Below are positions 63,568-63,905 of a stretch of DNA of 64,000 nt, one piece after another; within the stretch, counting starts at the first letter, position 1; each line of letters opens with the position of its first letter. The notes under the pieces are model-generated. The model had not been told where the DNA came from. It made no database searches and saw nothing but the letters and a program-made list of their open reading frames with translations. Source of the DNA: Escherichia coli. Lineage in GTDB: Bacteria > Pseudomonadota > Gammaproteobacteria > Enterobacterales > Enterobacteriaceae. Made by a program: the position numbers and the translations under genes. The stretch lies in NCBI RefSeq assembly GCF_003018235.1, contig NZ_CP027437.1; one strand, written 5' to 3'.

Positions 63568-63905
63568 TTGTGATTTTGACATTAGTCTATGCGTTCCATT
63601 CACGAAAATTGTGCGGATAATTATTTTGTGAAGGCTATTATCCTACACTTGTAAGAAAATCCGCGCACAATTGAAGCCAGAGTCTTATTTTTTATATTGA
63701 AAAACATGTTAATTTAAACACTATGAGAGATGATGCTTAACTTATCGTATTTATACCATTCTATTATTTAACAATAATAGATTAAAAATAGAAAGAGAGT
63801 AGTCCCCTACTCTTATATATCCAGGTTGATGATAAACCTATTATATATACTGTGCATCATCGCTATTACAAATCCTAATAATTCATTTCCACACAGGATA
63901 AGCAG

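Follow-up and report, generated by a model that had tools for sequence, protein, structure and literature searches.

We analyzed a 64-kb stretch of Escherichia coli DNA, hereafter the window, in which a group of fimbrial genes is followed by ydeP. The genes at this locus all lie on the + strand, in the order usher gene, ydeS, ydeR, ydeQ (62653-63567), and ydeP, whose ATG begins at 63907, and the inverted repeat that is the subject of this work sits within the 339-bp gap between ydeQ and ydeP. Positions 63400-64000 are 100% identical to E. coli strain MEI003, and in that identical record ydeQ is annotated as a fimbrial protein and ydeP, which comes next, as an acid-resistance putative oxidoreductase. 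The placement of the repeat between a fimbrial adhesin gene and ydeP, proposed in an earlier sequence-only reading of the window, is thus borne out by the annotation of both flanks. The region is present in 5,327 of the 5,426 complete E. coli genomes. Upstream of ydeS, the usher gene (58881-61532) is an intact 883-codon reading frame in the window strain, whereas K-12 carries only a truncated pseudogene, ydeT; on the strength of this intact frame, the ydeTSRQ fimbrial operon may be functional here.

The inverted repeat can be read directly from the DNA. Both of the 12-mers named in the sequence-only reading, AAAATTGTGCGG (63605-63616) and CCGCGCACAATT (63661-63672), are in place, the 44-nt spacer between them is AT-rich, as had been stated (25% G+C), and the T-tract TTATTTTTTAT is present, starting 13 nt past the right arm. 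A repeat finder returns a perfect 9-bp core pair, AATTGTGCG (63607-63615) and CGCACAATT (63664-63672), with 48 nt between the arms, together with an alternative register, TGTGCGGAT (63610-63618) and ATCCGCGCA (63659-63667), that contains one mismatch (G·U in RNA). If each arm is extended to 14 nt (63605-63618 and 63659-63672), 12 positions pair when a 2-nt bulge is allowed. The inner 7-bp inverted repeat listed in Table 1 is broken in K-12, where its right half reads ATTAGCC.

The repeat does not exceed what the base composition of the region delivers. Of the dinucleotide shuffles of the 339-bp gap, 14% contain one or more perfect 9-bp inverted repeats with loops of 3-60 nt, and 61 perfect 9-bp inverted repeats with the same range of loops occur across the 64-kb window. 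Because this share of shuffles match it, and because its fold z score of -1 to -2.5 is equaled by about 5% of stretches of the same size in the window, we conclude that the inverted repeat is real but statistically ordinary, at chance level. When the window is searched for the left arm with up to 3 mismatches, 4 matches are obtained versus 11.3 expected from shuffles. An arm-like sequence on the minus strand inside ydeQ, AAAATTACGCGGAT (63143-63156), matches the left arm at all but 2 positions and equals the left-arm allele of strain E200086; given these match counts, it lies within chance expectation.

Table 1. Features of the ydeQ-ydeP gap in window coordinates, with promoter positions relative to the inferred ydeP start.
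Feature	Position	Strand	Relation to inferred ydeP start	Remark
ydeQ (fimbrial adhesin-like subunit) stop codon	63565..63567	+		
Left arm, AAAATTGTGCGGAT	63605..63618		about -118 to -105	Minority T at 63612 (C in most E. coli)
Inner 7-bp inverted repeat, GGATAAT (63615-63621) / ATTATCC (63637-63643)	63615..63643			Overlaps left edge of EvgA box
EvgA operator (EvgA box), ATCCTACACTTGTAAGAA	63640..63657		centered about -74.5	18-bp palindrome
EvgA-responsive module colinear with safA	63640..63752	+	operator to about +30	
Right arm, ATCCGCGCACAATT	63659..63672		about -64 to -51	Abuts EvgA operator; inside module common to safA
T-tract, TTATTTTTTAT	63684..63695	+	ydeP -35 position	Within AGTCYTATTT block common to safA
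Extended -10 element, TGTTAATTT	63707..63715	+	7 nt upstream	
Inferred ydeP transcription start	63723	+		K-12 -178 from ATG, mapped through alignment
ydeP start codon	63907..63909	+		

The spacer between the arms holds a candidate operator for the response regulator EvgA. This box, ATCCTACACTTGTAAGAA, agrees with the EvgA consensus at 17 of 18 positions (one mismatch to TTCYTACANNTGTARGAA) and is the sole match in the 64-kb window. The consensus, TTCYTACA-NN-TGTARGAA, is an 18-bp inverted repeat reportedly described by Masuda and Church in 2003; a text search of the literature for the string itself returned no match. Applied to a K-12 derivative, this pattern flags the regions upstream of emrK-evgA, frc, and yfdX, with 4 matches in all (0 of 100 shuffles reach 4), and the box is kept in every ydeP allele that we fetched. 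The assignment agrees with published work on the gene, in which ydeP, safA, yfdX, and frc are listed as EvgA-bound promoters (PMC8147483) and ydeP, a standard EvgS/EvgA reporter, requires both EvgA and RcsB for its induction (PMC7174508). The EvgA dependence of ydeP is also reported elsewhere (PMC11210196), and H-NS binds a ydeP promoter fragment (PMC2984483).

In its central 18 bp, upstream of ydeP, the interval is therefore alike, at the same 17 of 18 positions, to the EvgA operators of ydeP, safA-ydeO, emrKY, frc/yfdW, and yfdX. The arms differ from such an operator in that the left arm ends 21 nt upstream of the box, whose downstream edge the right arm follows after 1 nt. The suggestion that the repeat marks a regulator binding site for ydeP accordingly holds for the interval, with its predicted EvgA operator in the spacer, but not for the arms, which fall outside the operator. 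A flanking inverted repeat is absent at the EvgA promoters of safA, emrK, and yfdX, and for this reason we rejected it as a common feature of EvgA promoters; the frc EvgA site has only an AT-rich, 14-nt flanking pair (86%). Visual inspection in and near the left arm for further sites (EvgA, RcsB, CRP, FNR, and GAD-box) gave weak partial matches only, which were set aside.

Downstream of the box, the promoter can be placed with the help of a 5' leader probe of ydeP that spans -178 to +10 (methods of PMC11210196). Because the window leader carries a 5-nt insertion, K-12 position -178 corresponds to position 63723 of the window, and we place the ydeP start of the window strain at this inferred position. 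The pattern TGnTA(A/T)NTT at 63707-63715, which would serve as the extended -10 element, is conserved in all of the ydeP and safA alleles that were aligned. A scan-predicted promoter, TTGAAG-16-TATATT (63671-63698), was considered as the main ydeP promoter and rejected: TTGAAG reads TTAACG in some strains, and the hexamers are not conserved in safA and in the divergent allele L009 described below, whereas TGnTA(A/T)NTT is kept and fits the -178 leader.

The ydeP leader that follows from this start (63723-63915) is itself strongly structured (-38.9 kcal/mol, z -3.4), with 0 of 200 shuffles folding as well, and in a scan of 81-nt stretches the one at 63761-63841 reaches a z of -5.4, which ranks it within the top 1% of the window. 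Within the leader, GAGAUGAUGC (63726-63736) and GCAUCAUCGC (63854-63864) form a long-range helix that is invariant in six alleles, L009 included, while the DNA between the two helix strands varies among alleles; no compensatory changes were seen in the helix across these six alleles. Hairpins are found at 63760-63781 and 63796-63813, and the last hairpin of the leader pairs UUCAU with the start-codon region. We note that, on the minus strand, antisense to the ydeP leader, 63796-63813 has the form of an intrinsic terminator, with the hairpin AGAGTAGGGGACTACTCT followed by CTTTCTATTTTT. It is the sole terminator-like site in the gap, and no antisense gene is annotated there.

The safA-ydeO promoter, which is EvgA-dependent and lies 2.6 kb downstream in the same strain, provides the most informative comparison (counterpart at 3388-3499, minus strand of the compared record, L007). 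Downstream of the box, ydeP and safA align without gaps and are identical at 60 of 95 positions (63%; shuffles give 25.3 ± 4.1, z 8.4), whereas upstream of the box they agree at 14 of 60 positions, which is chance level. The two promoters are alike at the right-arm positions, the TGAAG block, the AGTCYTATTT block, the extended -10 element, and a leader 10-mer, GATGCTTAAC; they differ in that safA has nothing similar upstream of the operator, no counterpart of the left arm, and no flanking inverted repeat. The right arm thus falls within the shared module and the left arm outside of it. Over the right-arm region, safA carries the identical base at 10 of 15 positions, with the invariant pattern T.CGC.CA....TGAAG. 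Because safA shares the right-arm DNA and has no partner arm, the conservation of the right arm is accounted for by a role in the promoter for which a second arm is unnecessary. More broadly, the promoters of ydeP and safA-ydeO resemble copies of one EvgA-responsive cassette.

Variation within E. coli separates the two arms further. The sequence-only reading had looked to conservation across strains, which was found for the right arm, invariant in 12 E. coli alleles, but not for the left arm, which varies among them. The majority allele carries TTGCGCGGAT, which creates a perfect 9-bp pair of TGCGCGGAT and ATCCGCGCA around a 40-nt spacer. Identity to the window over 116 nt is found in only 87 of 5,322 genomes, and the perfect 9-bp register of the window depends on the T at 63612, which at most these 87 genomes possess; the register picked up in the sequence-only reading is thus owed to a minority base of the window strain. 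Strain E200086 has an A·C mismatch in the stem. In strain BKQ37E (NZ_CP170328.1, 899-1500), an IS5-like remnant of the ISKpn26 family and ISEc52 adjoin the 5' edge of the EvgA operator; these elements replace the left arm and the fimbrial genes and amount to a natural upstream deletion.

A more distant view is given by L009 (NZ_JAATUR010000028.1), an allele from a record titled E. coli SCPM-O-B-8794. Across the gap it has 76% identity to K-12, and megablast found no relative of it among the 5,426 complete E. coli genomes. In L009 (1-1140), a 40-nt remnant of ydeQ is preceded, at a distance of about 730 nt, by the 3' end of hipA, an arrangement which indicates that ydeQ and ydeR are absent; judged from this gene order, the whole ydeTSRQ operon is probably absent from L009. 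The remnant is nearly identical to E. coli, and the next 60 nt are indel-rich. Amid these indel-rich flanks the left arm is a conserved island, identical between K-12 and L009 at 13 of 14 positions, and the right arm is a conserved island as well. The loop of L009 is enlarged by a 12-nt insertion and its right arm differs by three substitutions, and still the stem has lengthened. The retention of the left arm in an allele that has lost ydeQ and ydeR suggests some constraint on this arm that is independent of the fimbrial operon.

Outside Escherichia, relatives of YdeP are found in Edwardsiella (85%), Yersinia rohdei (67%), Raoultella and Tatumella (about 56%), and Burkholderiaceae (about 47%). 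The DNA upstream of ydeP in Edwardsiella, Yersinia rohdei, and Burkholderiaceae is unrelated, has no EvgA box, and is uninformative on the repeat. The YdeP proteins of Edwardsiella anguillarum, E. piscicida, and E. hoshinae share 85% amino-acid identity with that of E. coli, and this identity, taken with the unrelated upstream DNA, suggests horizontal transfer of the gene without its promoter. One further record, a 13-kb contig of a 'Candidatus Nanosynbacter' metagenome-assembled genome (JARKOR010000108.1), contains E. coli ydeQ-ydeP-safA DNA with a K-12-type promoter allele; this is most likely binning contamination.

We considered several ways in which the arms themselves could function, and it is mainly the conservation of the left arm that keeps these alternatives alive. 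The arms may be paired inverted sites for protein beyond the central EvgA dimer, either RcsB or extra EvgA protomers, that bracket the operator. The conservation of both arms as islands in the comparison with L009 would fit such sites, and TAAGAAAATCC, at the junction of the box and the right arm, may resemble an RcsB-type half-palindrome. RcsB is needed for ydeP induction, and its route and site there are not assigned (PMC7174508). The distance from arm to arm, however, is 49 bp in E. coli versus 61 bp in L009, so that the geometry of a paired site is not kept, and safA, which responds to the same regulators, has a counterpart of the right arm only. By eye, the RcsB consensus TNRGA-N4-TCYNA fits only at the wrong spacing, and the C-to-T changes in both arms make mismatches between the half-sites in DNA. 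Weighing these points, we regard paired protein sites as unlikely.

A second alternative places the function in RNA. On the + strand, the arms would close a stem-loop in the 3' UTR of the ydeTSRQ transcript, a structure that would impede 3' exonucleases once the transcript had ended by Rho-dependent or read-through termination. When stretches bounded by the arms are folded for four alleles, the long-range stem is part of every minimum-energy fold, with energies of -19.1, -25.8, -22.5, and -14.5 kcal/mol and z scores of -2.5, -4.5, -2.8, and -2.7, although the boundaries of these stretches were picked post hoc and the K-12 z is partly owed to a lineage-specific inner hairpin. Of the three core-stem substitutions, two change C to U and give G·U pairs on the + strand, which also favors a stem in RNA, as does the result of a terminator scan that found no + strand candidate between ydeQ and ydeP. 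Against this, a 106-nt frame across the repeat that is neutral with respect to the arms folds with a z of only -1.03. The 81-nt stretch bounded by the arms reaches -2.48, with its ends picked after the arms were seen, and in a window-wide scan 5.4% of 81-nt stretches reach -2.48 or lower (0.75% reach -4.49). RNA folding, to which the sequence-only reading had also pointed, recovers the long-range stem in minimum-energy folds, with z scores that run from ordinary on the neutral frame to the uncommon -4.5 on one of the arm-bounded stretches.

Other evidence likewise weighs against a fimbrial 3' stem-loop. The stem has no adjoining U-tract, the loop runs to 40-52 nt, and no compensatory change was seen (0 of 12 and 0 of 19 pairs altered on both sides, a count of low power with 9 distinct sequences only). 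L009 retains the stem despite the loss of ydeQ and ydeR, the homology to the safA promoter fully accounts for the right arm, and the published supplements of E. coli 3'-end mapping contain no entry for ydeQ or ydeP. In an Rfam scan with E up to 10, there was no credible family over the repeat interval and none at E below 1; the sole overlapping match, Staphylococcus sRNA 808 (minus strand, 63529-63722), scores 10.5 bits against a gathering score of 76, with an E of 8.4, and was rejected as chance level. A stem-loop that protects the fimbrial transcript is, in our estimate, unlikely.

The data also give no support to the proposal that the repeat could be an unusual terminator. With a Rho-independent terminator it shares a G+C-rich 9-bp stem and a T-run somewhere downstream, but the loop measures 40-48 nt rather than the typical 3-8 nt, and no U-tract adjoins the stem. 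The T-tract lies 13-19 nt past the stem, at the ydeP -35 position, and the terminator scan of the + strand was negative.

It is improbable, as we see it, that the arms form a conserved site pair or a stem that brackets the EvgA operator and provides a second input to the ydeP promoter. Its one pointer is the left-arm island in a lineage that lacks the fimbrial operon. Possible variants are an RcsB site at a gadE-independent ydeP promoter and a structure that lets fimbrial read-through affect the use of the operator.

As a minus-strand structure, the stem with its trailing AUUUUC (AUUUUUC in L009) might terminate antisense transcripts from the ydeP leader or gene, which we judge to be very improbable. 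A run of 4-5 U directly follows the stem on this strand, and a second terminator-like hairpin lies on the same strand at 63813-63796. AUUUUC is, however, all that comes after the stem and does not amount to a U-tract when tested as one; the minus-strand fold z scores are inconsistent across alleles (-0.6, -0.7, -1.9, and -3.6), the loop is very long, the right-arm change in L009 becomes an A·C mismatch on the minus strand, and an antisense promoter or transcript is not known here. As for the REP-like element suggested in the sequence-only reading, the repeat resembles E. coli REP and BIME sequences in being an imperfect, intergenic palindrome whose paired arms contain G+C, but it occupies a single place per genome across 5,322 E. 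coli genomes (median 1, highest 2) and its arm is rarer in the window than in shuffles, so a REP, BIME, or other dispersed palindromic element is refuted.

On balance, we favor with moderate confidence the reading that this stretch of DNA serves as the upstream activating region of ydeP's known EvgA-dependent promoter and that the inverted repeat is probably not a functional unit of its own. What this analysis observed is the operator match, the colinearity of the two promoters, the way the alleles vary, and the lack of a structural signal, and from these we infer EvgA occupancy, the start site in the window strain, and incidental pairing of the arms. In mechanistic terms, a phosphorylated EvgA dimer would bind the 18-bp palindromic operator between the arms, centered about -74.5, and would then activate sigma-70 RNA polymerase at a promoter with the extended -10 element TGTTAATTT and a poor, T-rich -35 region. 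The right arm would be the DNA between the operator and the -35 region, conserved because it is part of the promoter module common to ydeP and safA-ydeO, and the left arm would be a separate element about 25 nt further upstream than the operator. That the two arms are complementary is then probably incidental. Three observations stand against an incidental pairing, namely the left-arm island in L009, the survival of the stem through the loop insertion, and the arm-bounded folds that keep the stem.

The functional element here is the operator through which EvgA acts on the ydeP promoter, an element known for a long time. This promoter is a standard reporter of acid-induced EvgS/EvgA signaling. 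If the arms do function, they could explain the need for RcsB at ydeP, and they would bear on the design of ydeP reporters, which vary in the amount of upstream DNA they carry.
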